Source of the DNA: a virus
Length of the DNA: 47,825 nt
Virus record (IMG/VR): IMGVR_UViG_3300030399_000027
Strand: one strand, 5' to 3'
A model generated the notes under the pieces. That model did no database searches. It was given only the letters and a program-made list of their open reading frames with translations, and had not been told where the DNA came from. Positions within the stretch are counted from its first letter, which is position 1. Every line of letters begins with the position of its first letter. The position numbers and the translations under genes were made by a program. Positions 5,112 through 46,489 of this stretch are shown piece after piece.

Positions 5112-5185
5112 TTCGAAGCCCGATGCGTGAACCACCACGCGAGTCCAGCGAACGCTAACCAAACCATCCACGTTGCGTTATCCAT
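5108..5185 (-). CDS. micro-ORF, 25-aa peptide (MDNATWMVWLAFAGLAWWFTHRASK)
   Basis: Hand translation. GGAG 5 nt upstream. ATGGATAA overlap with the upstream stop. TACTACC box 15 nt upstream. Confidence 0.35.
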   Translation of the reverse strand: MDNATWMVWLAFAGLAWWFTHRASK

Positions 5186-5363
5186 GATTACTCCAATTTC
5201 GGTAGTAGTTAAGGGCGTGCGTGATCTGCTCGATGACATCGCGTAGCCCTGCTAGATGCTTGTCGCGGAAACCTGACTGCGGAATGTGCGCCAGGACATT
5301 GCCTCGCTCGATACGCGCTGCATTGAGGCAAACGCCCAACGCGTATATGAGTTCAGCTTCCAC
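5178..5363 (-). CDS. hypothetical protein, 61 aa
   Basis: Track ORF. GTG start overlapping the stop of the upstream micro-ORF. Confidence 0.5.
   Translation of the reverse strand: MEAELIYALGVCLNAARIERGNVLAHIPQSGFRDKHLAGLRDVIEQITHALNYYRNWSNHG
5201..5207 (-). promoter_or_regulatory. Orientation-locked TACTACC box (gene-sense), 15 nt upstream of ATG 5185
   Basis: - strand reads TACTACC-gaaat-TGGAGTA-atc-ATG. Lies in the 3' end of the preceding ORF. Confidence 0.35.
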
Positions 5364-5439
5364 GATTCGCGCTCAGTGCTGCGATGACGGGCGCAACAAG
5401 TATGAAAAACGAGACTGCGAACTGATATGCGGTGCTCAT
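5353..5439 (-). CDS. micro-ORF, 28-aa TM peptide (MSTAYQFAVSFFILVAPVIAALSANRGS)
   Basis: Hand translation. First ORF after promoter 5474-5503. Confidence 0.4.
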   Translation of the reverse strand: MSTAYQFAVSFFILVAPVIAALSANRGS

Positions 5440-5473
5440 GATCGTTTCCTTTCGCTTCGCTAGTTGATGTCTC

Positions 5474-5503
5474 ATACTACCGAAACGATAGCAAATGCGC
5501 AAA
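5474..5503 (-). promoter_or_regulatory. Early promoter with embedded palindromic operator
   Basis: - strand reads TTTGCG-N18-TAGTAT. TACTACC 5475-5481, N5, GATAGCA 5487-5493. Confidence 0.5.
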
Positions 5504-5511
5504 CACTTATT

Positions 5512-5901
5512 TCAAGGTTTGTTGCTCGCCGTCCACTTTTGCCAGCGCTCGTAGCTCTGCGAACGTTGCGCCTTGGTCATCAGCGATATGCCGAGCATTT
5601 CGAAATCGATGCGCGGCGTACTGAGCCACGTAGCGCGGGTAGCTCGCTCTTTCCAGGCTAGCCACGCACCGTTGACGATCTTTGCTGACGCTTTGACCAA
5701 TTGCGGAATGCCAGCCCGCCACGCGTCGAATTCCTCGCGCTCGGCCTGCTCGTTCTGCTCGGCCGTGTGATCGTCGTCTAGCCAGATGTCGGAATACCCG
5801 GCATATCGCAGCGTGGCGAGCGTACGGGCCGCGTCGATGTCCTGGGCGAACACGTGCGCGATGGACACGGGAAGGCGCACGCAATAGCGGTTGAGGTTCA
5901 T
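5512..5901 (-). CDS. hypothetical protein, 129 aa
   Basis: Track ORF. 4-nt overlap with the upstream gene. Confidence 0.65.
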   Translation of the reverse strand: MNLNRYCVRLPVSIAHVFAQDIDAARTLATLRYAGYSDIWLDDDHTAEQNEQAEREEFDAWRAGIPQLVKASAKIVNGAWLAWKERATRATWLSTPRIDFEMLGISLMTKAQRSQSYERWQKWTASNKP

Positions 5902-6554
5902 TTGCTGGCCCCTATCGCATCGCTTGGCGCATCTGCGGGGCCTTTGAACGAGCGTAGACGTAGCTCGACCTCGCCATAGCGGACGTACGTGCCGTTGCGA
6001 TGCTCGACCATGCCAACGCCGGTCTGGTACGAATAGCGCGCAATTGGCAAGCCGTCTTCATCAGGTCCGAGAATGTTTGCCGGTCGCGCATCTGCGCCCT
6101 GCGTGGGGGCGGGGTGACATGCATCGCATTCGTGAAGATGTTTGCGCGTTGCGTCGCTGGTATGCCAAGGGTCAGGCGTTTCGGCACCGCAAGAATCACA
6201 CTTCAATTCATCGTGTTCTGCATCGCCTGGGGTAGCGAGAAACAACTTAACGCCTTCGCTAACCTTCAATTCCGGGTGTGCTGCTGCGAATTCCTCCGTA
6301 TAGCCGATGGCATTCAGCACGGCTACTAAGGTGTCCATTGCGTCCTGCGCCTCGGTCTTTAGTCGCCCGATCATCGCGTCCAGCATTCTGGTTTGGTCGC
6401 GCAGCAGTGCATTTTCTGCCGTCAGACCAGCCGGGTCACACATCGTTTCCAAGTCATGCACGCGGGAGTCATAGTCAGATGCAAGAACAAACTCGCGCAT
6501 TTGGTCCATGCCGTCGATGTTTGCATCCAGCGTGAATCGCTTAATTTCGCTCAT
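5898..6554 (-). CDS. hypothetical protein, 218 aa
   Basis: Track ORF. Overlapping operon arrangement. Confidence 0.7.
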   Translation of the reverse strand: MSEIKRFTLDANIDGMDQMREFVLASDYDSRVHDLETMCDPAGLTAENALLRDQTRMLDAMIGRLKTEAQDAMDTLVAVLNAIGYTEEFAAAHPELKVSEGVKLFLATPGDAEHDELKCDSCGAETPDPWHTSDATRKHLHECDACHPAPTQGADARPANILGPDEDGLPIARYSYQTGVGMVEHRNGTYVRYGEVELRLRSFKGPADAPSDAIGASK

Positions 6555-6988
6555 GATTTATCTCCGTCCGTAGACGCTGCAAGGAGGGCGTAGAAGTCGG
6601 TAAGCGTGCTGCGTGCGAGCCGATACCCTTCACGTACTCCAGATGTGTATATCGGATGCAGGCCCTGTCCGCGGTCGTTTCCCACGCGGTCAAGCCACGC
6701 CTCAACTACGGCATCGGTTAGTGCTTCACGGGCATCTGCTACAGGCACGTTCGCTTCGGGACTGGCAGGGGCGGCGAATCTAGACCAGCAGGATTTGCAG
6801 CGCAGAGCATCCACATGCGCATCACGCGTCTCAGCGATATTTCCGCAAGCGCAGTGCAGTGCAGTCGGCGCGCTTCCAGTGGTCGGAGCGGTGGATTCGA
6901 GCGAACTAGGATTGAGCGGGCATGAGAAGCCCTTGCAATACGCCCCTTCCGGTAGTTTCTTTTCGCACTTCGAGCATTTGACTGCCAT
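6551..6988 (-). CDS. hypothetical Cys-rich (zinc-ribbon-like) protein, 145 aa
   Basis: Track ORF. CSKC...C..FSC N-terminus. GGAGG SD. First gene after promoter 7014-7043. Confidence 0.65.
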   Translation of the reverse strand: MAVKCSKCEKKLPEGAYCKGFSCPLNPSSLESTAPTTGSAPTALHCACGNIAETRDAHVDALRCKSCWSRFAAPASPEANVPVADAREALTDAVVEAWLDRVGNDRGQGLHPIYTSGVREGYRLARSTLTDFYALLAASTDGDKS

Positions 6989-7013
6989 TTGGCCTCCTGT
7001 TGTGATTACGCCA

Positions 7014-7043
7014 ACACTACCTTCTCGATAGTATTTGCGTCAA
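7014..7043 (-). promoter_or_regulatory. Early sigma70-like promoter with embedded palindromic operator
   Basis: - strand reads TTGACG-N18-TAGTGT. CACTACC 7015-7021, N5, GATAGTA 7027-7033. Confidence 0.55.
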
Positions 7044-7060
7044 TGGTTATTTGATGGGGA

Positions 7061-7450
7061 TTATGCAAAGCTCCATTCGTGCGGGTTGCTGAACCTCCCC
7101 GCCATGATGTCTAGCGCATAGTTAGCTCGGCGCAATGTCTGCTCGGCGTGCCCTATTTGCGCTTGCTTGCGGCGAATGAATGACTCTTTTGCTAGAACGA
7201 TGTCGGGATAGGCAAATCGCTTACCGCCGTGCTTGCGATCTGGCGCAAGAACGAAGCGGCGCATCCCATAATGATCAATCCAGAATCCGCGAGGCGTCCG
7301 CTTGGTGATGGCGAACTTGCGTAACTCAACTTCGAGGCCCGTTGCGTACTCGTCGCCGGTTGCGAAGTCATCGAACCGGAACAGAAACTCGCTTGCACCT
7401 GTTACGCCGTAGCCCGACGATAGAAGCGCTGGCTTGCTGAATGTGTTCAT
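7061..7450 (-). CDS. hypothetical protein, 129 aa
   Basis: Track ORF. Confidence 0.6.
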   Translation of the reverse strand: MNTFSKPALLSSGYGVTGASEFLFRFDDFATGDEYATGLEVELRKFAITKRTPRGFWIDHYGMRRFVLAPDRKHGGKRFAYPDIVLAKESFIRRKQAQIGHAEQTLRRANYALDIMAGRFSNPHEWSFA

Positions 7451-7619
7451 TGATTGGTATCCAAAGACGGCAAGTTTGATAGGGCCACACGTGAGCCGCG
7501 TCGATTGCGCACTGCCCCGTGGTATTGGCGACGATTCGATTCGCGTCCGTGCCGGTGCGTATGAAACTGCCGCGTGCGCAGTTCTCGCAGCGCTTTGCCG
7601 GGTTCTTAGGCGCGCTCAT
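7368..7619 (-). CDS. hypothetical protein, 83 aa (MSAPKNPAKRCENCARG...)
   Basis: Track ORF 7368..7637 trimmed. Its 3' end overlaps the next gene by 83 nt, so the true extent is uncertain. Confidence 0.35.
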   Translation of the reverse strand: MSAPKNPAKRCENCARGSFIRTGTDANRIVANTTGQCAIDAAHVWPYQTCRLWIPINEHIQQASASIVGLRRNRCKRVSVPVR

Positions 7620-7779
7620 AGCACCGACGCAGCGCAAAGACGTTGCTAGATGCGAACAGGTCTAACCAGTCGCATCCTTCCTTGCGAGCCGTTGTGACGC
7701 ATGCGAACGCCTCGGTAAAAGCTGTAACGACGCCGACCAAGCAACCGTCCGACTCGCGGAACACGTAGAACCGTTTCAT
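7606..7779 (-). CDS. hypothetical small protein, 57 aa (MKRFYVFRESDGCLVG...)
   Basis: Hand translation has no internal stops. Confidence 0.45.
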   Translation of the reverse strand: MKRFYVFRESDGCLVGVVTAFTEAFACVTTARKEGCDWLDLFASSNVFALRRCYERA

Positions 7780-7788
7780 TTATTGCCC

Positions 7789-7923
7789 CTAGCACCAAAC
7801 AACATCGTTATATGAGACGGAGCGAATGACTTTCCCGTTGTCGCACACGTCATAGTGATTTCTGAACAGCGCGAGATAGGCAAATACCCTGCGTGCTGCG
7901 TAGACGTAATCGGAATAGAACAT
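7789..7923 (-). CDS. hypothetical small protein, 44 aa (MFYSDYVYAARRVF...)
   Basis: Track ORF 7789..7980 trimmed, because its 5' part covers the promoter motif. Confidence 0.4.
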   Translation of the reverse strand: MFYSDYVYAARRVFAYLALFRNHYDVCDNGKVIRSVSYNDVVWC

Positions 7924-7955
7924 TTTCGCTCTCGTGTTTCCCTGGCTGATGCCAA

Positions 7956-7985
7956 ATACTACCGTAATGGTATTTTGCACGTCAA
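7956..7985 (-). promoter_or_regulatory. Early sigma70-like promoter with embedded palindromic operator, back-to-back with the terS leader
   Basis: - strand reads TTGACG-N18-TAGTAT. TACTACC 7957-7963, N5, GGTATTT 7969-7975. Confidence 0.6.
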
Positions 7986-8008
7986 TACCTTTTTAGGAGT
8001 ATTTGGTT

Positions 8009-8527
8009 ATGCGTCCACTTTGCGGGGCAAAAACTCGCACGGGCGCTCCGTGCGGAGCCAAGGCAGTAAAAGACGGCAAGCGTTGCCGCATGCACGGCGG
8101 GGCAACGCCGAAGGGCATCACGAACGCGCTGAAACAAGGCATATACGCCCGCGTTATCCGTCCAGAACAACAGGCTAGCGCTGCGTACATTCGCGCCAAC
8201 CTGGGTAATGTCGATGACGAAATCGTGATCGTGCGCCTACAGCTAGAGGCAACGCTTGCTGCTCAGAACGCCGCGATGGTGAACGACCAAAACGGGCTTG
8301 AACTGCAAAAGTTCAACGATAAGGAATCGACCGAATATTCGGCTGGCCCTGAGCGCGTTTATGAGCGAGTTGACTACAACGCGCACATTGACCGCCTCAC
8401 GGCGCGCATAGCGTCTCTTGAACGCATGCGCATGGAGTTGATGGAGGCAGAGCGTAACAAGCCGCCTGCTGATGACGATGAGCCCCCGCAATGGGTGATT
8501 AGCGTTGTCCCGCCCAAGGTGAAGTGA
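8009..8527 (+). CDS. terS: terminase small subunit (putative)
   Basis: Lies directly upstream of, and overlaps, terL. Basic N-terminus with CRMHGG. AGGAG 9 nt upstream of ATG 8009. Confidence 0.65.
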   Translation: MRPLCGAKTRTGAPCGAKAVKDGKRCRMHGGATPKGITNALKQGIYARVIRPEQQASAAYIRANLGNVDDEIVIVRLQLEATLAAQNAAMVNDQNGLELQKFNDKESTEYSAGPERVYERVDYNAHIDRLTARIASLERMRMELMEAERNKPPADDDEPPQWVISVVPPKVK

Positions 8528-9846: not shown

Positions 9847-9859
9847 CTGGATCGATCCT

Positions 9860-10039: not shown

Positions 10040-10048
10040 GAGGCCGCT

Positions 10049-11527: not shown

Positions 11528-11555
11528 CACCGCGCACGATGCGCAACACCGAACG

Positions 11556-11580: not shown

Positions 11581-11614
11581 TTTCTATAGGATCGGGCTGA
11601 AGCCCATACCAACT

Positions 11615-19341: not shown

Positions 19342-19567
19342 TCGCGCGGAACACTCGCAGCAGGATATAGAGCGCGGGCAAGCCGATCACGAGCACGAAG
19401 AAGCAAAGTATTGACCGCCCCGCGATGCTCGCCACTTTCAAGGCCTGCTCTTTTCGCAGGGGCGAAAGTGTGCGCGATTGCACATTCAGCGGGCGGATAT
19501 TCGGATATTGCACAAACTCGAAATGATCGGCCGCCCACTCATGGAACTTGAAAAGGTAGTTTTTCAT
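19334..19567 (-). CDS. hypothetical membrane protein, 77 aa (C-terminal TM)
   Basis: Track ORF 19334..19594 trimmed to ATG 19567. It is the only ORF in the 270-bp gap. Weak support. Confidence 0.3.
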   Translation of the reverse strand: MKNYLFKFHEWAADHFEFVQYPNIRPLNVQSRTLSPLRKEQALKVASIAGRSILCFFVLVIGLPALYILLRVFRAIT

Positions 19568-19612
19568 AAGCCCAAAACGGTAGTAAAATGCCACTTCTAC
19601 ATCGGAGCGGCT

Positions 19613-20269
19613 ATGTTTGAAAGCAAAAAGGGTGTGCCGGGAATCTACGCGATTGTAAACCTGAAAGACGGAAAGCGATACGTCGGATCGGCGGTTTGCC
19701 TAGGGACGCGTGCTAGGGCGCACGAAAATCAGCTTGCGGGCAATCGCCACTTCAATAGGCGATTACAAGGCGCATGGAATCGCGACGGAGCCGATTCGTT
19801 CCGTTTCGATGTTATCGAAGTGGTAGGAAGCACGTCCGAATTGATCGCAGCAGAACAGCGCCATATAGATGCCGCTGCCGCGAACAGATACAACCTTCGA
19901 CCGAAGGCAGAATCCAATTTAGGGATTCGATGGAGCGATGAGTTCAAGGCAAAGATTAGTGCGGGGCTGACTGGGAAAGTCCATAGCGAAGAAACCAAGC
20001 GGCGCATGAGCGCATCGCACAAGGGAAAAATTCGCTCAGCCGAGCACACAGAAAAGATCATTGCAACGAAACGCGGCGTCCCACGCCCTGCTCACGTAAT
20101 TAAGGCGTCTTCCGATTTTTTAAGGAAATTCACCGATGCTCAAGTGATTGAGATAAGGGCCTTGCGCGCACTTGGAAAGACATACCGCGTTATAGCGGAG
20201 CAATACAACTGCTCACAATCAACAATCCTCTTTGTTGTCAAAGGAAAGGGGGTTTGCTACTCGGGGTGA
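19613..20269 (+). CDS. GIY-YIG homing endonuclease (I-TevI-like, with NUMOD3-type repeats and a C-terminal HTH)
   Basis: GIYAIVN...KRYVGSA...R...H GIY-YIG core. Repeated G(K).HSEETKRRMSASHKGK motifs. Free-standing between tail genes. Confidence 0.85.
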   Translation: MFESKKGVPGIYAIVNLKDGKRYVGSAVCLGTRARAHENQLAGNRHFNRRLQGAWNRDGADSFRFDVIEVVGSTSELIAAEQRHIDAAAANRYNLRPKAESNLGIRWSDEFKAKISAGLTGKVHSEETKRRMSASHKGKIRSAEHTEKIIATKRGVPRPAHVIKASSDFLRKFTDAQVIEIRALRALGKTYRVIAEQYNCSQSTILFVVKGKGVCYSG

Positions 20270-30652: not shown

Positions 30653-30671
30653 TACTACCATTACGGTAGTA
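30653..30671. promoter_or_regulatory. Perfect 19-bp palindrome TACTACCattacGGTAGTA forming back-to-back -10 elements for the moron (leftward) and lysis (rightward) units
   Basis: - strand GGTAGTAT lies 36 nt from ATG 30617. + strand GTGACA-N15-TAGTAA lies 33 nt from ATG 30705. Confidence 0.6.
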
Positions 30672-35745: not shown

Positions 35746-35761
35746 ACTTCCTCACCATTTC

Positions 35762-35768
35762 GGTAGTA
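35762..35768 (-). promoter_or_regulatory. Orientation-locked TACTACC box, 16 nt upstream of TTG 35745
   Basis: - strand reads TACTACC-gaaat-GGTGAGG-aagt-TTG. Confidence 0.35.
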
Positions 35769-35780
35769 TTTGTGGGCGTG

Positions 35781-36194
35781 CTAATGCCACTCTTCCATGC
35801 CCTTGGCGGCGGGAAGACGAACATTGTTTTGCGAGCACCAGGCCAAAATGTATTCAATCAGGCTAGACATGCGCCCTACGCCCATCTGAGCCGATGATTC
35901 GCGTATGTTGACCCATTCCCCTTCCAAGCCTGGAACCATGTCCGCTCCGAGCCCGGTAGCGATGGCGTGAGCGCTAATCATCAGCGTCTTCCACTGCACG
36001 GCATTCAAAACGCGTCCATGCCACTTCGCTTGTTTGGCTATGTGGCCGAACAGAGCGTGCAGCATGGCGTTTTGATCAAGTGACCGGGTTGGCGGTTGGA
36101 GCGTCATGAAAAACCCGTCCGGGGCATCAACGAACGCTTGAGCCATGCGCTCGCGTGTTTGCTCGTTCAGAACCGATACGATTTTCTCGCTCAC
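35781..36194 (-). CDS. ninB: NinB/Orf-family recombination mediator
   Basis: RSLDQNAMLHALFGHIAKQAKWHGRVL...WK parallels lambda NinB RSLDQN..LWA.LGD.S.Q..WHGR.L. Confidence 0.8.
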   Translation of the reverse strand: MSEKIVSVLNEQTRERMAQAFVDAPDGFFMTLQPPTRSLDQNAMLHALFGHIAKQAKWHGRVLNAVQWKTLMISAHAIATGLGADMVPGLEGEWVNIRESSAQMGVGRMSSLIEYILAWCSQNNVRLPAAKGMEEWH

Positions 36195-36607: not shown

Positions 36608-36762
36608 AATTCAATCTTGGCGGTTTCTGCTGCCGCGTCGCCATGCTTCAGCCTGACGGCATGAACGAGGTTTTGTGCCCGCACAAAGTTGCCTCGCTGC
36701 CCGTCGCGCGCCGCTTCCTTGAATACCGCTAGGCAAGCGGCGCGCTGTTCATCGACAGTCAT
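36574..36762 (-). CDS. hypothetical small protein, 62 aa
   Basis: Track ORF 36574..36834 trimmed to ATG 36762 (TGATG-type coupling to the exonuclease stop). Confidence 0.4.
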   Translation of the reverse strand: MTVDEQRAACLAVFKEAARDGQRGNFVRAQNLVHAVRLKHGDAAAETAKIELWKFIRSGKTL

Positions 36763-37586
36763 CAGAAGGGGATTTCGCAAAGCTCTTGCGGGGTGCGGAC
36801 AGAGACAGGGTTGAACGTCATCTTGCGATAGCACCGATACGCCGCCGTCACGTCATCGCAGCAGTAGTCCGCCACGTCATCGATACGACCATCTAGCACC
36901 ATATCGAGCACCATCGAGCCGTCGATACCTTCCGTCTTGCCGATCACGCCGAGCGCCGCGCAAAGAGCGTCAAGCTTGATCGACCCTTGAGCGCCGCACC
37001 AACGCGTCATCGTGTCGAAAATGTCATCACCCCACGGCTTAGCCTGGAACGGGATGATTGCCGGTGGTTTGATACCAAGGATCACGGCGCGCTGAAACAG
37101 AAAGCGCAAGTCGAACTGTGCTACGTAGTGCCCCACGTAAAGCGGATTGCGCATCGATTGCGGGCTGAAATTATCCGCGATTGCTTCAAACGCATCCGTC
37201 AAAATCTCGCGCTCGGCGTCCGGGTCGCGGTAATCGCCACGATAGAACGCGATAGGCGATTCGTCATTGAACTGCAAGCCGATAACTGCGATTCGACCAC
37301 GGGAGCCGTCGAATGACGTTTTGCGCCATTCTGCTTGGGCTACTTCCTCGCTCTTTTCTTCCTTGAATCGAGCCGCCCACAAATCCAGCGCGTTCGCCTT
37401 GCTCGTGAATTTGATTTCGTCATTGTCCGTCATGCCCAGGTCGGCGCAAGCCTTTTCCTTCGTCATGTCGGAAGGCGCTTTGAAGTTCTCTTGAACAGCG
37501 GCGCGGAACGCATCGAGCGCACCATCGCGCATATCTGGCAACGTTTCGATGTCGAGTGTGGTTGTGGGCGTGTCGATGACGTTCAT
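36762..37586 (-). CDS. DEDD-type 3'-5' exonuclease (DnaQ/PolB-exo-like)
   Basis: LDIET (Exo I), GHYVAQFDLRFL (Exo II), YCCDDV (Exo III). C-terminus ends EIPF. Confidence 0.75.
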   Translation of the reverse strand: MNVIDTPTTTLDIETLPDMRDGALDAFRAAVQENFKAPSDMTKEKACADLGMTDNDEIKFTSKANALDLWAARFKEEKSEEVAQAEWRKTSFDGSRGRIAVIGLQFNDESPIAFYRGDYRDPDAEREILTDAFEAIADNFSPQSMRNPLYVGHYVAQFDLRFLFQRAVILGIKPPAIIPFQAKPWGDDIFDTMTRWCGAQGSIKLDALCAALGVIGKTEGIDGSMVLDMVLDGRIDDVADYCCDDVTAAYRCYRKMTFNPVSVRTPQELCEIPF

Positions 37587-37601
37587 TTTTAATCCTATTT
37601 T

Positions 37602-37608
37602 GGTAGTA
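37602..37608 (-). promoter_or_regulatory. Orientation-locked TACTACC box, 15 nt upstream of ATG 37586
   Basis: - strand reads TACTACC-aaaat-AGGATTA-aaa-ATG. Confidence 0.35.
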
Positions 37609-37651
37609 TATAAATCGGCTAAGAATCACCTAGCCGTATCGAATCACTGTG

Positions 37652-38461
37652 TTAGATCGCGGCCGGGGAGAATGCCGCGCTGATCGTTGCATGCCACGTT
37701 TGAGCCCACTCCAAAGCAAGCGCGGACGCTTGGTTGGTTTCCGGTGTGTCGCCCTTGTTGATTGCCATGAAGAACCGTTCGGCCGGTCGGCTCGAATCAC
37801 GCGGGATAGCAAAATCGCCTGACTCAATATCGACGCCTTGAGCCGTGGCGATTGTGCCAACCAAGCATGAGCACGCACCCGTGTACGTCGAGCCATCGAC
37901 GCGGCCGTTTTTGAGGGCGTCGATAAGTGCAGGGACTTCGCGCGGAGCTTGCGAAATAACCTCGATGAAATCAGCCTTGATTGGAAGCAGGTTCGCGCTA
38001 CGCAGGTTCGCGCTACGCAGGTACGCGCTACTCAGGTACGCGCCACTCAGGTCCGCGCTACGCAGGCCCGCGCCACTCAGGTTCGCGCTACGCAGGTCCG
38101 CGCTACGCAGGTCCGCGCTACGCAGGTACGCGCTACGCAGGTTCGCGCCACTCAGGTCCGCGCTACGCAGGTCCGCGCCACTCAGGTTCGCGCTACGCAG
38201 GTCCGCGCCACTCAGGTCCGCGCTACGCAGGTCCGCGCCACTCAGGTGCGCGCTACTCAGGTCCGCGCTACGCAGGTCCGCGCCACTCAGGTGCGCGCTA
38301 CTCAGGTCCGCGCTACGCAGGTCCGCGCCACTCAGGTCCGCGCCACTCAGGTCAACTTTTGCCTTGACGGCAAAAGTCAATGTTAGAGCCATCGAGTTCT
38401 CTTCGGCGTCGTGAGCGAAAAGAACAGCAAGCGACCAGCGATTTTTGATTTCGATACGCAT
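37652..38461 (-). CDS. pentapeptide-repeat protein, 269 aa (about 24 A(D/N)LXX-type repeats plus a roughly 100-aa C-terminal domain)
   Basis: DLSGADLSGADLRSADLSSAHLSGADLRSADL... Start trimmed to ATG 38461 (MRIEIKNRW...). Confidence 0.85.
   Translation of the reverse strand: MRIEIKNRWSLAVLFAHDAEENSMALTLTFAVKAKVDLSGADLSGADLRSADLSSAHLSGADLRSADLSSAHLSGADLRSADLSGADLRSANLSGADLRSADLSGANLRSAYLRSADLRSADLRSANLSGAGLRSADLSGAYLSSAYLRSANLRSANLLPIKADFIEVISQAPREVPALIDALKNGRVDGSTYTGACSCLVGTIATAQGVDIESGDFAIPRDSSRPAERFFMAINKGDTPETNQASALALEWAQTWHATISAAFSPAAI
37988..38347. repeat. Tandem array of 24 x 15 bp (CAGGTNCGCGCYAYK), coding for the pentapeptide repeats
   Basis: Perfect 15-nt register across 360 bp, read directly. 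All three + frames are also open here as an artefact. Confidence 0.9.
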
Positions 38462-38523
38462 GATTTTCCTAATGTCGGGTTGGCAAGTCAGTGAGCTAAC
38501 TATACAACCAATCTCACCGTTTT

Positions 38524-38530
38524 GGTAGTA
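38524..38530 (-). promoter_or_regulatory. TACTACC box with degenerate partner (TACTACC-aaaac-GGTGAGA), 62 nt upstream of the pentapeptide gene
   Basis: Intergenic position. Same orientation as the other boxes in the leftward operon. Confidence 0.35.
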
Positions 38531-39875: not shown

Positions 39876-40820
39876 TTACCGTCCGTCGCGAATGAATCGG
39901 ATCGCTTCGAGCACATCGGCCACGTTGCGGGGTGACGTGCGGCGCTTGGCTGCGTCGGAAAGGTTCGCGAACACCAATCCATCGTCAGGTAGCACGAACG
40001 CCGTAGCCGCGTGATTTGATGCCTTGGCGATGACTTGCGCCGTCTCGCCGTCCAGAAGGTCAAGCAAGGTTGAATCGAACGATGCGCGAACCGGGCTCAC
40101 CCGCGCTACGGATGCGGTCAAAGGCTGATAGCCAGTTCCAACGGAGCGGTTGTCCCACGGGTCGCTTTTCGGCTTTGCCAAAACGGTAGGCACGCTCTCG
40201 ACTTCAAAGCCAGCTTCGACGCGCTCCCAACCTGCCGGGACATCGATTATCGGCACTGGATCAAAGCCCTTGATCGGCTCCATGATTTCAGCCTGGACCG
40301 GCTTTGCGGCTTCAATCGCTGCTTGTGCTACGGCAAGCTGTTCGCGCAATTCCCGATTGGCTTTCTCGGTAGCATCGCGCTCTGCCTGCAATGCGGCCTC
40401 GCGTTCGGCGGCAAGACGGCGTTCCTCGGCCAACTCAGCGTCGCGGATTGCTTGGGCCTCTGCCGCCTTACGGTCGGCCTCTTCCTTCGCTTCACGTTCC
40501 TTGCGCAAATCCTCTGCGCGAATCTGCTTGTCGTAATCAAGCTCAAGCTTCGTGAGTTCCTTCGTGATGCGCGCGGCCTCGGCGTCAATCTCGCGGCCAG
40601 CTTCCAGATGCGGAGCTTTCAATTCGACCCGCTTCTTTTCCACGCTAACGCGGTATTCCTTCACTTCGGCGCGGTCGGCGCGGGCCGCCTTCATGCCGAC
40701 AGTCGTCTTTACGTCATGCACAACGCCAGTGTGACGCGATTTAAGCGCTTCGAGCGCGGCGTTGATTTCGCTAAAAGGGGCAAGGTTCTGCGACACGCTC
40801 GTATTCTCTGTTGTGGTCAT
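39876..40820 (-). CDS. coiled-coil protein, 314 aa (start uncertain: ATG 40820 or 40892)
   Basis: Track ORF 39876..40955. The central Glu/Arg/Ala-rich coiled coil is typical of phage recombination-module accessory proteins. Confidence 0.6.
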   Translation of the reverse strand: MTTTENTSVSQNLAPFSEINAALEALKSRHTGVVHDVKTTVGMKAARADRAEVKEYRVSVEKKRVELKAPHLEAGREIDAEAARITKELTKLELDYDKQIRAEDLRKEREAKEEADRKAAEAQAIRDAELAEERRLAAEREAALQAERDATEKANRELREQLAVAQAAIEAAKPVQAEIMEPIKGFDPVPIIDVPAGWERVEAGFEVESVPTVLAKPKSDPWDNRSVGTGYQPLTASVARVSPVRASFDSTLLDLLDGETAQVIAKASNHAATAFVLPDDGLVFANLSDAAKRRTSPRNVADVLEAIRFIRDGR

Positions 40821-41115
40821 TTGTGTGTTCCGTCTCGGTTGGTAGGTTTCTGTCCGCAAAGTCTTTGTCGCCGTAGTTTCGTAGTGCGCCATCTGCTCGG
40901 TAGTGGCAATACAAACTGCCCCGTCGATGTTTAAACCAGTACGCCCCGCAAACACATGACAGCTTCGAGTTATCCCGGTTGTTCATCCAGGCATCAACCC
41001 GGTAACTTCGTTCGCCGCACGTTCGGCACTTCGGTATTATTTCGTACTGCTCGGGAAGAAGTCGCAACACGCTGCGCGTCTCACATTTCCGGCATCTGAC
41101 GTGCGTTCTTGCCAC
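40771..41115 (-). CDS. Cys-rich zinc-finger protein, 114 aa
   Basis: CRKC-X17-CRTC plus further Cys/His. GTG start with an AGGGGG SD. First gene after promoter 41145-41174. Confidence 0.6.
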   Translation of the reverse strand: MARTHVRCRKCETRSVLRLLPEQYEIIPKCRTCGERSYRVDAWMNNRDNSKLSCVCGAYWFKHRRGSLYCHYRADGALRNYGDKDFADRNLPTETEHTNDHNREYERVAEPCPF

Positions 41116-41144
41116 TTCGCCCCCTGTTTCGCTACCGCAAGTGA

Positions 41145-41174
41145 ATACTATCGTTGCGGTAGCATTTGAGTCAA
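41145..41174 (-). promoter_or_regulatory. sigma70-like promoter with an embedded operator, plus a second operator copy at 41183-41201
   Basis: - strand reads TTGACT-N18-TAGTAT. TACTATC 41146-41152, N5, GGTAGCA 41158-41164. The upstream copy is TACTACC-ttttt-GGTTGAT, with centres 37 bp apart. Confidence 0.6.
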
Positions 41175-41200
41175 GACTTATTTACTACCTTTTTGGTTGA

Positions 41201-41866
41201 TCAGAATGGAATTTCGTCATCGAATCCATCCGGCGCGTTCGGATGCCCGCTGCTGGTAGTGCGCCGCGAGCCCAAGGATGATGACGCGTTGCCCTTATTC
41301 TTAACCGGGCGATCACGAAGCAATTCAAGGATCAGCGGATATTTCAGCGCCTGGGTCTTGCGATCCATGATTTCGGACGCGAACAGGTTGTCGGCTTCGC
41401 GGAACACCGCATTGAGTCGCGTTGACCAACCAAATTCGCCGGTCGGCTTGCCATCCTGCTTTTTCTCATATTCCTCCATGATGAACATGAGGCCGATTTG
41501 TTTGTTCAGCAGTTCGGGAAACTGCAACAGAACCTTTTCTTCGTTCTGCTTTGTGTCTGCGTTCCAGACCTGCGACTTGACCTTGGCTTCGGTCAATTCC
41601 TTCACGCTCATGCAGGCCATGATTGCAATGAGCAAGCCGTAATCGCCAAGCTTGGTCCCGTCTTCCTTGACGGTGTACACGGTGAAGTTCGCCATATCCC
41701 CATCGTTCCCCTTGAACGAGAACGAGACGCCATGCGTGCCGGTCGTGGCTAGTATCTTTTCGGCCTTGGTGAAAACGCCAGTGAAAGCGCCCTTCACGTC
41801 GATAAAGTGAGTGCGGTTCTCTGCCTTGCGTGCTGCGTCAACTGCATCTTTGGTCAGTGCGTACAT
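41201..41866 (-). CDS. phage single-stranded-DNA-binding-like protein with an SSB-type acidic tip
   Basis: Ends ...DGFDDEIPF (compare E. coli SSB DDDIPF). Adjacent to the Sak4-like ATPase. Confidence 0.6.
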   Translation of the reverse strand: MYALTKDAVDAARKAENRTHFIDVKGAFTGVFTKAEKILATTGTHGVSFSFKGNDGDMANFTVYTVKEDGTKLGDYGLLIAIMACMSVKELTEAKVKSQVWNADTKQNEEKVLLQFPELLNKQIGLMFIMEEYEKKQDGKPTGEFGWSTRLNAVFREADNLFASEIMDRKTQALKYPLILELLRDRPVKNKGNASSSLGSRRTTSSGHPNAPDGFDDEIPF

Positions 41867-41895
41867 TTGCTATCCTTTGGAACGGTTTAGGCGCT

Positions 41896-42552
41896 TTAGG
41901 CCGGGGTGGTGAGGCTGTAGTAATCCGCGATTGCTGCATCGACGGCGGCCAGATCGTTGGGGATCATGTCGGCATCGAACAAGCCCATAGGGCTCTTTAC
42001 TGTGGTGCGTCCGTTGTTCTGCGTCACGAACAGGTGTTCGCGGTCGATCACTTCGGTTTGCAAAACGATGGAAACCATGCCTTCGAGACAAATCTTGTCG
42101 TCAAGCATCTTGCCAATCGTTTTCATCTTGGACTTGCCCGCGTCCGTTTCTTCCGTGTGCGACATGATGTAGACGCGCACGTCACGCGGTAGCTCTGTTG
42201 CGGCGTTGAGAATGTCCCAGGCGTGGCGGCCGATGTCGTTGAACTTGTCGTAGCCCTTTTCATCGTTCCGGCGCATGAACTCGTTGCCCATGATGTATTG
42301 GAAGTCATCCAAAACTATTATCTTCCGGCGCGTGCGCTGCATAGCCGATATTATGTAATCCGCCTTGTCCGACACGAGCATATTGCCCTTCGGGTTTTCG
42401 CTGGACAGGTAGTCCCAACCCAACGGCTTGCCCTTGAACGGGAGCGACTTTCTAAGCGCCTGTATCAAAAGGGTCTCCGCTGGCGCAAGATTGCGCATAG
42501 CGGTGGACTTTCCTGTCCCGGACACGCCAAGGATAAAAGTTACGGTTGCCAT
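41896..42552 (-). CDS. Sak4-like / AAA_24-type RecA-fold ATPase (recombination)
   Basis: N-terminal Walker A GVSGTGKST, Walker B IIVLDD, about 218 aa. Paired with the SSB-like gene. Confidence 0.7.
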   Translation of the reverse strand: MATVTFILGVSGTGKSTAMRNLAPAETLLIQALRKSLPFKGKPLGWDYLSSENPKGNMLVSDKADYIISAMQRTRRKIIVLDDFQYIMGNEFMRRNDEKGYDKFNDIGRHAWDILNAATELPRDVRVYIMSHTEETDAGKSKMKTIGKMLDDKICLEGMVSIVLQTEVIDREHLFVTQNNGRTTVKSPMGLFDADMIPNDLAAVDAAIADYYSLTTPA

Positions 42553-42668
42553 GATTTGCCTTTTCGGTAGCTGTTTCGGATTGTTCGCGCTGTTCGTCGT
42601 TCTCGATCTGTTGCTGCCCGCTGTCGTCGTCTTGCATTTCTGCCGCCTGTTTGCGATAACGTGATGAG

Positions 42669-42698
42669 ATCATATCGAAACGATAGTAATTGCGTCAA
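42669..42698 (-). promoter_or_regulatory. sigma70-like promoter with an embedded operator, plus a second operator copy at 42707-42725
   Basis: - strand reads TTGACG-N18-TATGAT. Half sites 42670-42676 and 42682-42688. The upstream copy is TACTACC-gttta-GGTATTT, with centres 37 bp apart. Confidence 0.6.
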
Positions 42699-42724
42699 GA
42701 ACTATTTACTACCGTTTAGGTATT

Positions 42725-43243
42725 TTATCTCGGCAACCATCCATGAGACTTGTAGGTCGCGTGGAGCTTGGCCGTTGCGGACTTCCCAAGGGCGAGCGCT
42801 GCTTTCTGAACCTTGACGCCCAAGCGGACGGTTACAGTCTTCGAAATGTTGTTCGCCTTCGCAATGTCGCCAAAGCTTGGGCAATACGTTTCTCCGATCA
42901 TGAATTCCCGGTCGATGACTGCGGCGAGCAATGTCGCGTTGGCGTGAAGGTGCGAGAACGCTGCGCAAAGTGTGTCCAGCGCCCCGCGCTTCGCTTCTCC
43001 TGCCCCGTCATAAGTCGCCGTGCACCAAGCCATTTGCGCGGCGCTCAATGCGTCTTGCGTGGCCTTCATTATCCAAACCGCTTGCGCTACCTGATCCAGA
43101 CGCGAAAGCTTCCCCTTCTTTTCGGTAGCGTTCGCCGTGGGCTCGTCGTATGACGGGCACTTGATTCCCTCTGCTACTGCGAGATTTTCGAACGAGAACG
43201 ACAGACCGCTATGTACTGAGCCGAAGATACATATTCTTTGCAT
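42725..43243 (-). CDS. hypothetical protein, 172 aa
   Basis: Track ORF. No confident family assignment. Confidence 0.6.
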   Translation of the reverse strand: MQRICIFGSVHSGLSFSFENLAVAEGIKCPSYDEPTANATEKKGKLSRLDQVAQAVWIMKATQDALSAAQMAWCTATYDGAGEAKRGALDTLCAAFSHLHANATLLAAVIDREFMIGETYCPSFGDIAKANNISKTVTVRLGVKVQKAALALGKSATAKLHATYKSHGWLPR

Positions 43244-43398
43244 CGCTTTATCATCCTTTTATTTTTTGCGCAGATAGCGCCGTCAAAGACCGGTGTTGCC
43301 CCTAATGACCACACGCAACCCTTGCAGGTTCGCTCCTCGCGCTCAATCAAAATGTCCAATGGATCGCGGCAATAGTCGCTGCGTCGAAGTTCATCCAT
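43174..43398 (-). CDS. hypothetical Cys-containing protein, 74 aa
   Basis: Track ORF 43174..43470 trimmed to ATG 43398 (ATGGATGA overlap with the HNH stop). Its 3' end overlaps the next gene by 70 nt. Confidence 0.35.
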   Translation of the reverse strand: MDELRRSDYCRDPLDILIEREERTCKGCVWSLGATPVFDGAICAKNKRMIKRCKEYVSSAQYIAVCRSRSKISQ

Positions 43399-43861
43399 AG
43401 TTGGCAAACTCACCGTGGTACTTGTCGGCGGCCGTTTTGTATGCCTCATGAGCCTCGCGGGGAGTGTCAAACAACCCTAGGCTTATGGTTTTTTTGTTGG
43501 CTCGTATTCTGGCTTGCCACCTGAGTGCCTGCCTATGCCACGTAACCCCCTTGTACCCTGACGTATTGTTTTTCTGCGCGGGTCTGTTCCACATATTTTG
43601 TGTGTGAGTCGCGATGCGAAGGTTATAACGCTGGTTGTTGCCGCGAATCATATCCACGTGATCGATTCGCCTAGGGTCGCCCTGCTCAAGGCCCATGATG
43701 ACGCGATGCATTGGGATAGTTGATCGCTCGCCCGTCGCGTGGTCTACATATTCTCGAACGGCGTAGCCGTCATCAGCAGCCCATTCGAATGAATTTATCC
43801 ATTCGTAATCCGCGTCATCGACTAGGGCGAAATATCCTTTTGTTAGCGGGATTATCTTCAT
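43391..43861 (-). CDS. HNH homing endonuclease with an AP2 DNA-binding domain
   Basis: HR...G......IDHVD....NNQ..NLR......N (HNH_3-like), followed by SGYKGVTWH...RWQARI...K...LG.F.T..EA..AY (AP2). Confidence 0.8.
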   Translation of the reverse strand: MKIIPLTKGYFALVDDADYEWINSFEWAADDGYAVREYVDHATGERSTIPMHRVIMGLEQGDPRRIDHVDMIRGNNQRYNLRIATHTQNMWNRPAQKNNTSGYKGVTWHRQALRWQARIRANKKTISLGLFDTPREAHEAYKTAADKYHGEFANYG

Positions 43862-44139
43862 TGGAGGAATAGATCGGGAGCAGCCTTGATTGTCTGGACC
43901 GTGCGGCCGGTGATGGAATCCTTGATCGGATCGCCACGCACCGCCAAGCCCTCGGCTAGTAGCTCGTCAATGCGCGCACAGACTGAGCCAACCATCAGGT
44001 CAAGATTGCGGGATAACTGAGCACGGCTGAACGATGATTGCCGCATGTCACGCAGGAAGTTGAGTATTGCGATTTGCTGGCGCTGCTTCAAACCACTCGC
44101 GCGCGTTTCTATCAAAGACTCGGCTTTGGTTGATAACAT
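43858..44139 (-). CDS. winged-helix (MarR-like) DNA-binding protein, 93 aa
   Basis: Track ORF trimmed to ATG 44139 (TAATG coupling to the DnaC-like gene). Confidence 0.5.
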   Translation of the reverse strand: MLSTKAESLIETRASGLKQRQQIAILNFLRDMRQSSFSRAQLSRNLDLMVGSVCARIDELLAEGLAVRGDPIKDSITGRTVQTIKAAPDLFLQ

Positions 44140-44909
44140 TACACTTCCCCTATGCTGCGCGCATTGGCGCGGTAACTTTCCCAATCGAAGATGACCACTG
44201 ACGCGCGCTCGCGCAGACGGTCGGCTATACGGTCGCCAAGGTATTCAGAGAGAGCCCCCTTATCGAGGTTGGAAATAATGATCGTCGGTCGCGCATTGCG
44301 ATAACGCCGGTCGATAACGTTTGTCAGGTGGCCGCGCACGTCATCGGTAGCGCCCTGGATGCCGATTTCATCCAGCACCAAGAGGTCGATAGCGCCGTAT
44401 GCGTCCATCATGGCCGTGGTGCTCGTCTCCGCGTCACGGCGCATGCAGTCTCGCATGCGGGTAACGAGGTCGTATGCGGTCTCGTACATGACAGAGTGAC
44501 CGAACGCCATTGCGTGGTGAGCAATGGCAACTGCCAAATGCGTTTTTCCTGTCCCGATGCCTCCAATGAAAGTAAGCGACGCGCCAGTCTTCAGGTGCGA
44601 GCGGAACCCGTCTGCGAACCGCTGAGCCTTCACAAGCGCCGTTTGCATCACTGGCGTATCGGCCCGGTAGCTGTCGAACGTCCGGTTAGCAAATCCTCGC
44701 GGGATGCCCGACTGCGCAAACCGCTTCTCGATGCGCGCCTGCCGCTCTGCCGCTTCCTTAGCCGCGTTCGTCACTGCCAGCGCATCGGCTTCAGCGCGAG
44801 CGCACAGCAAGCAATGCTCGCCCTTCACGACAACCGCGCCGCGAAACATGATCGGCTTGGCCTCGTAATCGCCATGCGTCGGGCAGTTAAGAATCTTGGT
44901 GTCGGTCAT
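44139..44909 (-). CDS. DnaC/IstB-like AAA+ helicase loader
   Basis: FIGGIGTGKTHLAVAIA (Walker A), LLVLDEIG (Walker B). N-terminal CPTHG...CLLC zinc ribbon. Confidence 0.85.
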   Translation of the reverse strand: MTDTKILNCPTHGDYEAKPIMFRGAVVVKGEHCLLCARAEADALAVTNAAKEAAERQARIEKRFAQSGIPRGFANRTFDSYRADTPVMQTALVKAQRFADGFRSHLKTGASLTFIGGIGTGKTHLAVAIAHHAMAFGHSVMYETAYDLVTRMRDCMRRDAETSTTAMMDAYGAIDLLVLDEIGIQGATDDVRGHLTNVIDRRYRNARPTIIISNLDKGALSEYLGDRIADRLRERASVVIFDWESYRANARSIGEV

Positions 44910-44921
44910 TTTTCGCAGTGC

Positions 44922-45701
44922 TTAAAAAGGAATGTCGCCGGATTGATTGCTTCCGTAGTTCATCGATTTTAGATCATATGCTCTAGACTGTCCAACCATT
45001 TTGGTAGTATTTGATTTCGAGCGAGTGGGGGCATACAAGCCTTGATAACCTCCTGCTATCGAGTGGTCGATGACTTCAAGCGGCTCGTATCCTTCCTCGC
45101 GGTACGCAACCAGCTTTGTAAGGCATTGTTCAACAGAAAGACCCGTCATCGTCTTTCCGATCTGCTTGCGGTGCTGGACCCACTTCTCCCAAACTTCAAC
45201 GGCGAGCCATTCAGGAAGAATCGCTTGCACGTCCGACATCCGAGCGGCCCGCTTAGTCTTCTTTAAAGCTTTTACAGTCTTAGTTTCTAAGTCAGTATTA
45301 ACTAGTGGCGGAATTTCCCGATCTGGGTTTTCCCTGTTTGGGAAATTCCCGTTCTGCTGATCTGATAGCAAATCGGGATTTTCCCGTTCTGCTGATTCTT
45401 CCTCTTGGCGCTCGTCGTAGACCATGTAGTCAAGCGTTCCGTCGCGGTGCTTGTGCTTGGTCATGTACCCCGCGTTCAGCAGTTCCTTGATGATTGAGTA
45501 GACGCCATCCTTGCCAACGTTCTTGGGCGTGGCCGGGAGGGTGAAATTTACAAGTGCCTCAACGCACACGCGCCATTCGTCGGGCTTGGCGAGCAGGAAC
45601 ACGAGCATTCCTTTCGCCGCCCATGAAATGCCCGGATCATTGGCGAGCGAGTTTTCCAGCATGTAGAACCCACGTGACTTTTGCTTTGAACGAACGATCA
45701 T
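44922..45701 (-). CDS. replication initiator (lambda O-like role: N-terminal winged helix, internal iterons, C-terminal DnaD-like region)
   Basis: Sits upstream of the loader gene. Iterons lie inside the gene. Ends ...SGDIPF. Confidence 0.7.
   Translation of the reverse strand: MIVRSKQKSRGFYMLENSLANDPGISWAAKGMLVFLLAKPDEWRVCVEALVNFTLPATPKNVGKDGVYSIIKELLNAGYMTKHKHRDGTLDYMVYDERQEEESAERENPDLLSDQQNGNFPNRENPDREIPPLVNTDLETKTVKALKKTKRAARMSDVQAILPEWLAVEVWEKWVQHRKQIGKTMTGLSVEQCLTKLVAYREEGYEPLEVIDHSIAGGYQGLYAPTRSKSNTTKMVGQSRAYDLKSMNYGSNQSGDIPF
45003..45009 (-). promoter_or_regulatory. TACTACC box inside the initiator gene, 3 nt upstream of an in-frame ATG (44999)
   Basis: - strand reads AAATACTACC-aaa-ATG-GTTGG. 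Confidence 0.3.
45309..45395. repeat. Iteron-like direct repeats (candidate ori) inside the initiator gene
   Basis: Four copies of GGRWWTTCCCGWTCTG-like units: 45309-45324, 45325-45340, 45341-45360, 45375-45395. Confidence 0.6.
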
Positions 45702-45955
45702 GCGGATTTCTCCGCTATCTTCGGCGCATTGGCCTCCATAAGCTCGGTTACGCCCAGGTTGTGCCCGGTCATTTCGAGCGCTGCGGCCGACAGTTCCTTA
45801 GCCAGATCGTAGCCAGGACGCTTCCGGCCGTGCTTGATGTGCTCGAAGTAGGAGAATTTCGTTCCGGCCCTCTCGCACACCTTGGTTACAATTTCCGTTC
45901 CGACTGCGTGCCAGAACTCCATTGCGCTGATCGCTTTCTTTTGCTTGGTAGCCAT
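45698..45955 (-). CDS. Cro/YdaS-like HTH regulator
   Basis: 85 aa. First gene of the leftward replication operon, divergent from the CI-like gene. GAGGAG SD. Confidence 0.65.
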   Translation of the reverse strand: MATKQKKAISAMEFWHAVGTEIVTKVCERAGTKFSYFEHIKHGRKRPGYDLAKELSAAALEMTGHNLGVTELMEANAPKIAEKSA

Positions 45956-46111
45956 AAACTCCTCGTTTAGTTACGAAATACCACCATTATGGTAGTCTAC
46001 TTTCGCGGACAAAAGCAAGCGCGGAACGGACGCGCCGCTTTGTTGCGTGGCTTATTCGTATCTTTATGGTATGGTTCTATTTATCGAATAACTACCAACG
46101 AAGGCAGCGTC
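45956..46111. promoter_or_regulatory. Divergent immunity (switch) region between the Cro-like and CI-like genes
   Basis: Contains TACCACC-attat-GGTAGTC (45979-45997) and AACTACC (46090-46096). A candidate leftward promoter is TTGTCC-N17-TAATGG. Confidence 0.55.
46090..46096 (+). promoter_or_regulatory. Orientation-locked (A)ACTACC box, 15 nt upstream of ATG 46112
   Basis: + strand reads AACTACC-aacga-AGGCAGC-gtc-ATG. Confidence 0.35.
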
Positions 46112-46489
46112 ATGGACGTTTACCATATCCGCTTCAAAAACTATCAATTTCTATTTGACAGGTTCAAGGAATCCGTTTGGCGAGAGTGGCCTGGCGAGCC
46201 CGAACACGGAATGTTGCGCCGGTTCGGAACTCGCCTGGACATCAGCGAAGCCTACATGTCTCACCTGAACACGCAGTACAAGCCTATCGGCACGCGCATG
46301 GCCCGTAAGATCGAAGCTGCGCTAAAGCTACCGGCCGGGTGGATGGATCAGGATCACGACAACGGAGCGCCACGCACGCCCGACGAAGCAGACTTCGTGA
46401 AAGCGGCCGTCGAGCTATATCGTCAAAGTCCGAACGAAGCGCAAGCCGCACTAATTCAAGCACTTACGAAAAAGATGCTGGATAGCTAG
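46112..46489 (+). CDS. CI-like HTH repressor, 125 aa, with no recognisable S24 autocleavage domain
   Basis: Track ORF trimmed to ATG 46112. HTH-like ...RRFGTRLDISEAYMSHLNTQYKPIGTRMARKIEAAL.LP.GWMD. Divergent from the cro-like gene. Confidence 0.65.
   Translation: MDVYHIRFKNYQFLFDRFKESVWREWPGEPEHGMLRRFGTRLDISEAYMSHLNTQYKPIGTRMARKIEAALKLPAGWMDQDHDNGAPRTPDEADFVKAAVELYRQSPNEAQAALIQALTKKMLDS

Follow-up and report, generated by a model that had tools for sequence, protein, structure and literature searches.

The 47,825-nucleotide stretch of viral DNA analyzed here (IMG/VR record IMGVR_UViG_3300030399_000027; hereafter the window) begins and ends with an exact 127-bp direct repeat (1-127 and 47699-47825), and on the strength of this repeat and of its gene order, which is typical of a temperate tailed phage, we read it as a complete, circularly closed temperate phage genome of about 47.7 kb. 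Our subject is the heptamer TACTACC, and in particular three copies that lie 15 or 16 nt upstream of start codons within operons, which an earlier reading of the letters alone (the original prediction) had singled out as an orientation-locked box tied to translation starts. The genes, sites and signals concerned are collected in Table 1. No close relative was found among GenBank phages; homologs of the CI-like protein encoded near the right end sit in prophages of Burkholderia, Paraburkholderia and Caballeronia, so that the host is probably one of the Burkholderiaceae. For comparison we used a collinear virus, IMGVR_UViG_3300013306_000006 (loci L001 and L024; ~66-88% nucleotide identity, around 75%), referred to below as the relative.

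Table 1. Locations of the sites, genes and signals discussed (window coordinates unless a locus is named; gap, nucleotides between box and start codon; SD, Shine-Dalgarno sequence)
Feature	Location	Strand	Sequence	Gap	Matrix score	Remarks
Start-proximal operator	5189-5207	-	TACTACC-gaaat-TGGAGTA-atc-ATG(5185)	15	13.3	0.05 expected per genome
Start-proximal operator	35750-35768	-	TACTACC-gaaat-GGTGAGG-aagt-TTG(35745)	16	13.5	orf35395-35745
Start-proximal operator	37590-37608	-	TACTACC-aaaat-AGGATTA-aaa-ATG(37586)	15	18.0	3'-5' exonuclease-like gene 36762-37586
Terminator-like hairpin	37616-37636	-				immediately upstream of the 37608 box
Counterpart of 5207	L001 12558		CACTACC-gtaac-AGGAGTA-caa-ATG	15		flanks largely unalignable
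Counterpart of 35768	L024 4351		TACTACC-aaaat-TGGATTG-a-ATG	13		gap 16 in the window
Counterpart of 37608	L024 2078		CACTACC-aaaaa-AGGATTT-aag-ATG	15		likewise after a terminator
Prophage site	L027, L028		AACTACC-attat-GGGAGCT-ttt-ATG			own operators AGCTACC-N5-GGTAGCT
Prophage site	L025		TGCTACC-gtgtg-GGGATTA-tcat-ATG			
Prophage site	L084		GGCTACC-cgcca-GGGAGCC-GTG			
Reference operator	30653-30671		TACTACCATTACGGTAGTA		31.4	perfect palindrome; between divergent lipoprotein and lysis genes
Operator	45979-45997		TACCACCATTATGGTAGTC		23.5	between divergent Cro-like gene (45698-45955, -) and CI-like gene
Promoter-type operator	596-614	-	TTGACT-18-TAGTAT			-10 from GGTAGTA
Sites built like 596-614	4166-4184, 5475-5493, 7957-7975, 41146-41164, 42670-42688					
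Auxiliary operator	41183-41201	+				37 bp upstream of promoter operator 41146-41164; kept in the relative
Auxiliary operator	42707-42725					37 bp upstream of promoter operator 42670-42688, the same spacing as in the 41183/41146 pair
Weak operator-like site	7983-8001	+	CAATACC-ttttt-AGGAGTA		13.2	covers the SD of the first late gene (start at ATG 8009); 0.15 expected
Operator	38512-38530	-	TACTACC-aaaac-GGTGAGA		18.6	
Operator	44991-45009	-	TACTACC-aaaat-GGTTGGA			inside initiator gene
CI/Rep-like helix-turn-helix repressor gene	46112-46489	+				125 residues; divergent from Cro-like gene, operator between
Divergent Cro-like/CI-like gene pair	~45.7-46.5 kb					
Long leftward early operon	45.9 to 34.8 kb					
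Terminase and structural genes	8.0-28.8 kb	+				followed by lysis genes
Integrase and excisionase	33.7-35.1 kb					

TACTACC occurs 20 times on the two strands of the window, against 1.22 occurrences expected and a maximum of 5 in 100 dinucleotide shuffles. The heptamer forms one half, the strong one, of the 19-bp dyad TACTACC-N5-GGTAGTA, of which the window contains 18 sites with at most three mismatches (1.55 in shuffles); in a typical site one half is perfect and the other carries two to four mismatches. The spacing is specific, in that 115 loci of the phage family (1.83 Mb) contain 159 CTACC-N5-GGTAG dyads, as compared with 5-16 for spacings of N3, N4, N6 and N7. On an operator matrix trained on 12 promoter or palindromic sites only, with the start-proximal sites kept out of the seed, about 21 window sites score 11 or more. 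These sites are dispersed over the genome, with three in short gaps within operons (5189, 35750 and 37590), and the late operon is almost free of them. The sole operator-like sites of the late region, 19567-19585 and 19810-19828 (scores 16.6 and 13.4), are those of a GIY-YIG homing-endonuclease-like gene (19478-20269, +) inserted in the late structural operon. Two further TACTACC copies, at 298 and 9778, were set aside as Tyr-Tyr codons within genes that have no partner half and are probably chance or coding. A literature search on TACTACC found nothing relevant.

For the most part, the dyad sites overlap sigma-70-like promoters. In an independent consensus scan, five dyads coincide exactly with promoters of the form TTGACN-(16-18 nt)-TAGTAT or TATGAT, the GGTAGTA half of these promoter-type operators supplying the -10 hexamer; elsewhere the weak half is used as a -10 in the opposite direction (GGTATAAT at 46556, GGTATTTT at 7957 and AGTAGTTT before int). 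The weak site at 7983-8001 lies 26 bp from the operator at 7957-7975 and is conserved in L001. The original prediction held that boxes without a -35 always read in the sense of the downstream gene. This holds at all three start-proximal sites of the window and at those of its relatives, and fails at four other sites without a promoter, 41183, 42707, 19579 and 46791, which are reversed; the strong half of 41183-41201, for example, is oriented opposite to the start-proximal sites. Since antisense copies stand in transcribed regions (41183 and 42707), we take the motif as such to be a DNA element that works in either orientation, the degenerate half being whichever one overlaps another signal. 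At 46790-46810 the half-sites are everted (GGTAGT-N8-ACTACC) and are followed by a T-run on the minus strand, an arrangement predicted to be a minus-strand terminator.

The three start-proximal boxes were found as the original prediction describes them: those at 5207, 35768 and 37608 lie 15, 16 and 15 nt before their start codons, lack a -35 element, and have a degenerate partner half that coincides with the SD. The first precedes a gene (5108-5185) for a 25-residue hydrophobic peptide, which we count as real because it is conserved in the relative. It is one of a cluster of tiny conserved hydrophobic peptide genes (28, 25 and 30 residues; 5019-5438, -; L001 12247-12535) with overlapping starts and stops, downstream of the promoter at 5475. 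The second box lies 12 nt past the stop of a NinB-like gene, and the third follows directly on a terminator-like hairpin; an equivalent hairpin and T-run precede the exonuclease box in all relatives. In the merger of operator and SD, the GGTAG of the downstream dyad half becomes GGAG or GGGAG. Start-proximal sites rank among the best non-seed matches to the matrix (13.3-18.6, with at most 0.15 expected per genome), and this is not owed to the box alone: the next 13 nt, which take in the spacer, the weak half and its flank, have scores of -1.2 to +7.2 at the start-proximal sites of the window and the relative, as compared with a mean of -13.2 for the same positions at 35 other SD-bearing gene starts, none of which reaches any start-proximal site. 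On this sequence evidence, the three sites are full 19-bp operator-like dyads fused to SD sequences.

The fusion also accounts for the geometry. If the weak half doubles as the SD, box and start codon must stand 13-16 nt apart (5 + 7 + 1 to 4 nt), and because TACTACC cannot serve as an SD, the strong half must be the upstream one. The original prediction had taken the fixed spacing to favor a translation-linked role, while allowing that this argument would fall if the spacing were to be expected once the SD was accounted for; as it follows by arithmetic, a fixed distance from motif to start codon need not imply a translational function. At several start-proximal sites (window 5208-5220 and 35769-35781; L024 3900-3919 and 4332-4350) the word CACGCnC stands exactly 5 nt upstream of TACTACC, a spacing equal to that between operator halves, and may be a third, degenerate half-site. 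Considered as a sigma-54 or other alternative promoter, CACGCnC-N5-TACTACC fits no consensus.

All three boxes are kept at the orthologous starts of the relative, with gaps of 13-15 nt, and they form conserved islands in diverged flanks. An additional gene of the relative comes with a box as well (L024 3920, TACTACC-taaat-AGGAGTA), and a further site stands at L001 12677 (CACTACC-aaaac-GGGAGGA-aac-ATG). Boxes that flank cassettes differing between window and relative, namely the pentapeptide-repeat gene (38530/37608) and the extra winged helix-turn-helix gene of L024 (3920/4351), could suggest that they are module-junction repeats, serving as recombination points for cassette gain and loss, or else decaying promoter-operator relics with no present regulatory role; the phage does encode Sak4-like and single-stranded DNA-binding protein (SSB)-like recombination proteins. 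Yet a repeat of 7-12 bp is very short for recombination, the boxes persist where gene content is unchanged, and junction repeats would not be expected to have an operator-like weak half that tracks phage-specific variants, as described below. We regard this explanation as hardly probable at all.

The rival to be taken most seriously is that of unrecognized promoters: each box gene would have a weak or unconventional promoter of its own, with the start-proximal site as a downstream, O2-type operator acting at initiation. Neither a standard nor a relaxed sigma-70 scan found a promoter-like sequence within about 150 nt upstream of 5207, 35768 or 37608, and none is conserved there in the relative. 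At the exonuclease gene, which needs either a promoter or antitermination since a terminator precedes it everywhere, the -10-like words before the box vary across relatives, and the distance from terminator to SD is only about 25 nt. At four other sites, by comparison, the promoter explanation seems true. Two of these the original prediction had listed as related boxes. The box at 38530 is separated from the real start (38461) by 62 nt, the open reading frame that begins at a distance of 16 nt being no more than three codons long. The operator is conserved at L024 1981 together with a TATAGT that follows it by 19 nt (38499-38504 in the window), and the relaxed scan of the relative returns CTACCA-18-TATAGT; it is probably the promoter region of a moron-like pentapeptide-repeat cassette and not a start-region box. 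The box at 45009, inside the initiator gene, is conserved at L001 4665. It shares sequence with the -35 of an internal promoter predicted ahead of the DnaC-like gene, TGGACA (44989-44994)-17-TAAAAT (44966-44971), of which both hexamers and the 17-nt spacing are likewise kept in L001 while the spacer has diverged; an operator over the -35 of an internal promoter is thereby suggested, and suggested only, as the hexamers also encode conserved residues. The other two are L027 12928, an SD-overlapping site in a Paraburkholderia prophage 36 bp downstream of a promoter-core operator, and L001 12677, which lies directly downstream of a promoter -10. For the three start-proximal sites of the window themselves, we consider the promoter explanation unlikely.

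The pentapeptide-repeat gene (37652-38461, -) sits between the TATAGT-bearing box and the terminator, and in the relative (L024 1981-2100) the promoter-like element and a terminator are both present, separated by about 60 nt that contain no gene. The arrangement may represent a moron cassette, or else an empty landing pad from which a short RNA would be made.

The same fusion of operator and SD recurs in independent Burkholderia and Paraburkholderia prophages, where box and SD half take on phage-specific forms (Table 1). Over 16 sites, several of them orthologs of one another, the outer bases of the SD half track the box variant (covariation score 0.139 versus 0.073, reached by 1 of 500 shuffles; slid controls were lower). 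Family-wide, sense ACTACC followed by an SD and a start codon peaks at a gap of 13-16 nt, a range that takes in 19 of the 38 cases, whereas 59 permuted words average 1.8; the peak comes mostly from partner-bearing sites, the partner-less ones amounting to about 6 independent cases. In a sister clade (L010-L023 and L041-L056; CI homologs ~45% identical) the same TACTACC and GGTAGTA halves stand 14-18 bp apart instead of 5 and so coincide with the -35 and -10 regions, and some of the genes seem to lack a leader; L039 and L040 (CI 64% identical) have a different genome organization. A metagenome scan yielded only 2 loci. Before the exonuclease gene, more distant relatives retain AC(T/C)ACC at 12-15 nt from the start, and the terminator and half-box are retained even in clades with the 14-18 bp operator spacing.

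Several of these observations could be claimed for an element acting in RNA, the second possibility raised by the original prediction, in which UACUACC, alone or paired with the SD half, would be a translational operator for a phage or host factor or would form an SD-occluding hairpin. The start-proximal sites are all sense and all at 13-16 nt, as is the family-wide peak; distant clades keep the partner-less half-box at the exonuclease start; and among the 10 start regions that were folded, one site of the relative with an extended palindrome (L024 3912-3960) folds well, at -13.1 kcal/mol (z -4.3). That site gave the sole signal, however, and the seven regions from the window fold no better than shuffles (minimum free energy -1.2 to -7.8 kcal/mol, z -0.79 to +0.98). 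The base pairs fare no better: in 15 of 16 sites the substitution that gives rise to the SD (G or A for T at dyad position 15) disrupts the central A-U pair, and pair 7-13 is broken in 8 of 16. The outer pairs 1-19 and 2-18 do covary across phages, as a DNA dyad also predicts, but changes between window and relative are uncompensated, for instance T to C at position 1 of the box with A or T at position 19. The identical motif, moreover, forms a dyad at promoters and occurs antisense too, and the roughly 6 independent partner-less boxes stand near the top of composition-matched controls (maximum 5-6, the best controls being shifted copies of the motif). Direct pairing of UACUACC with 16S rRNA was also considered and dismissed by reasoning alone: the box lies 5' of the SD and beyond the reach of the 16S 3' tail, and the GGUAGU of helix 24 is an implausible partner. 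Nothing in the sequences appears to require a trans-acting RNA-binding factor, and we judge an RNA-level element to be very unlikely. The DNA-level reading that the original prediction had set beside it is the better one, with the amendment that the sites are full 19-bp dyads whose weak half is merged with the SD and not asymmetric half-operators.

The candidate to bind these dyads is the CI/Rep-like protein encoded at 46112-46489. Its product matches PHROG families phrog_5736 and phrog_12107 ("transcriptional regulator" and "transcriptional repressor"), and a profile built from 11 family members matches Rep of Salmonella phage SPC32H (5d50, 6.6e-6) and a phage CI (7nkv, 5.6e-5). The predicted model of the repressor is of moderate confidence (pLDDT 73), with 5d50 as top Foldseek hit and no match at E <=0.001. 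Homologs that are 41-88% identical conserve the predicted recognition helix, AYMSH(L/I)NT, and this fits the common CTACC half-site. From the co-occurrence of gene and dyads and from this family-conserved helix, we infer that the CI/Rep-like product, rather than the Cro-like protein, would occupy the dyads.

With moderate confidence, then, we propose that the start-proximal TACTACC boxes are complete 19-bp dyad operators for the CI/Rep-like repressor, placed in short operon gaps with the downstream half merged with the SD, and that they repress the downstream modules in the lysogen. The identity of the sites as operators is supported by the sequence evidence, from which the binding protein and the mode of repression follow as suggestions. 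The upstream half is held at consensus, presumably offsetting the binding energy lost in the weak half. In a lysogen, bound repressor would silence the downstream modules, that is, the exonuclease with the nin-like genes, orf35745 and the small membrane peptides, and it might do so as a roadblock that stops RNA polymerase reading through from upstream, whether from the early promoter, from internal promoters or past the terminator at 37616-37636; alternatively or additionally, the site may serve as an auxiliary operator. Blocking of elongation by bound repressor is plausible, and we speculate that the gap between cistrons would be the point where no translating ribosome follows the polymerase. 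More tentatively, the phages may have an independently evolved stoperator-like system, so called after the repressor sites of the L5-type mycobacteriophages: in these Gram-negative (Burkholderiaceae) phages a dimeric CI/Rep-type repressor on DNA that encodes the ribosome-binding site between cistrons would stop read-through polymerase where the upstream ribosome has terminated and cannot help. We put this forward as a possibility worth considering, and not as the probable case.

A number of points weigh against the proposal. The roadblock function itself is purely conjectural. Three of the relative's sites read CACTACC, a poorer match at position 1; the conserved CACGCnC upstream of several boxes is left unaccounted for; and the full dyad does not explain why the exonuclease start keeps AC[T/C]ACC without a partner in clades with the 14-18 bp operator spacing. 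The covariation test used partly orthologous sequences, and as an RNA hairpin needs dyad symmetry equally, covariation alone cannot separate DNA from RNA. Finally, the set of operators is sparse in the late operon, unlike that of L5.

Three more boxes that the original prediction had listed are not supported as members of the class. AACTACC in the CI leader (46090-46096, +) is followed by a downstream half scoring -24.4, worse than 33 of 35 control genes; its conservation in the relative extends to the entire leader, and partner-less ACTACC words so placed are no more frequent than the range of composition-matched controls allows. Upstream of the Sak4-like gene, AGCTACC (42566-42572, -) corresponds to AGAAACC in the relative, the sequence around it being otherwise conserved, and CACTACC at 40899-40905 (-) corresponds to CATCACA there. 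These last two are accounted for by coding sequence: the box at 42572 lies in a small conserved acidic open reading frame (~42552-42636, -) that overlaps the Sak4-like start, and that at 40905 lies in an unlisted gene (40771-41115, -) downstream of the promoter at 41146, which encodes a conserved 114-residue CxxC protein (77% amino-acid identity in the relative). A "conserved leader RNA" considered downstream of that same promoter had no Rfam match and a fold z of +0.78, and turned out to be this 114-residue gene. Nor does the proposed internal start at 44999, from which a 25-residue peptide ending in DIPF would be made, survive comparison, as the ATG in the spacer of the 45009 site is ACG in the relative.

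Two observations concern the genome at large. A tRNA-Ala(TGC) gene lies at 46930-47004 (+), and beside it, at 47010-47109 (+), there is a second, weak and unusually long tRNA-like match (Rfam 30.1 bits, threshold 29) without an ARAGORN call. Three replication and recombination proteins, all encoded on the minus strand, end in SSB-like acidic tips: the SSB-like protein itself (41201-41866, ...DDEIPF), the 3'-5' exonuclease-like protein (36762-37586, ...CEIPF) and the initiator (44922-45701, ...GDIPF). This suggests a common docking partner for the three.

If the proposal is true, one small repressor would silence a mosaic prophage module by module from some 20 operators, several of which are merged with ribosome-binding sites, and any cassette carrying such a box would fall automatically under immunity control. 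It would also allow the immunity regulons of Burkholderiaceae prophages to be annotated by a simple sequence pattern, in which a strong half is followed by N5, an SD-like half and the start codon, and would extend the stoperator idea beyond actinobacteriophages and asymmetric, monomer-bound sites.

At first sight, the start-proximal sites resemble the SAS and ESAS of Cluster K mycobacteriophages, one-orientation repeats that lie a few nucleotides (3-7 bp) upstream of the starts of non-structural genes, overlap the SD and precede unrelated genes (PMC3203893). SAS, a 13-mer that is not palindromic, has the SD as its conserved core; it was proposed to act in translation and has not been reported as a promoter operator (PMC3203893). 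Position upstream of starts, single orientation there and SD overlap are shared with our sites. In these, by contrast, the SD is preceded by the conserved core TACTACC, at 13-16 nt from the start codon, and the element as a whole is dyadic and is also found at promoters in either orientation.

Dimeric repressors can act as roadblocks inside transcription units, as PurR does at purB and LacI does when placed downstream of promoters, and in phage P1 the single repressor C1 has many scattered operators, its sites being asymmetric and at promoters. The present system would have in common with these a helix-turn-helix repressor within transcription units and a single phage repressor over scattered operators; we know of none of them that systematically merges its operator with SD sequences.

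With lambdoid CI/Cro and SPC32H Rep (PDB 5d50) the system shares a dyad over the -10 and -35 of early promoters, an operator flanked by divergently oriented repressor and cro-like genes, and tandem operators. What sets it apart is the presence of some 20 sites genome-wide, in which one half is nearly always perfect and the other compromised, and the overlap of several sites with DNA encoding ribosome-binding sites inside operons. Lambda itself has two operator clusters.

L5-type stoperators, known from Cluster A mycobacteriophages (L5 gp71; the TipsytheTRex repressor), are dispersed repressor sites, some in promoters and some in intergenic operon gaps, with an orientation tied to transcription and a proposed role in halting elongating polymerase in the lysogen (PMC9283540). 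Our sites are alike in being dispersed (about 21) and in lying partly in short intergenic operon gaps, although here only three or four stand within operons and the late operon is nearly free of them. The L5 site is an asymmetric 13-mer bound by a monomer with a helix-turn-helix and a "Stoperator" domain, whereas here we find a 19-bp dyad and a small CI/Rep-like helix-turn-helix protein of 125 residues; the L5 logic of the original prediction therefore does not carry over to the repressor. Orientation, too, is intrinsic and functionally required in L5, while here it is explained by the SD overlap. L5-type stoperators are the closest system in function, but their defining features, the asymmetric site and the two-domain monomer, fail in this phage. 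By lineage, given a dyad with fixed spacing, overlap with core promoter elements and a helix-turn-helix repressor homolog beside a divergent cro-like gene, the system belongs with the CI/Cro-type dyad operator regulons, among which the number of its sites is unusually high.

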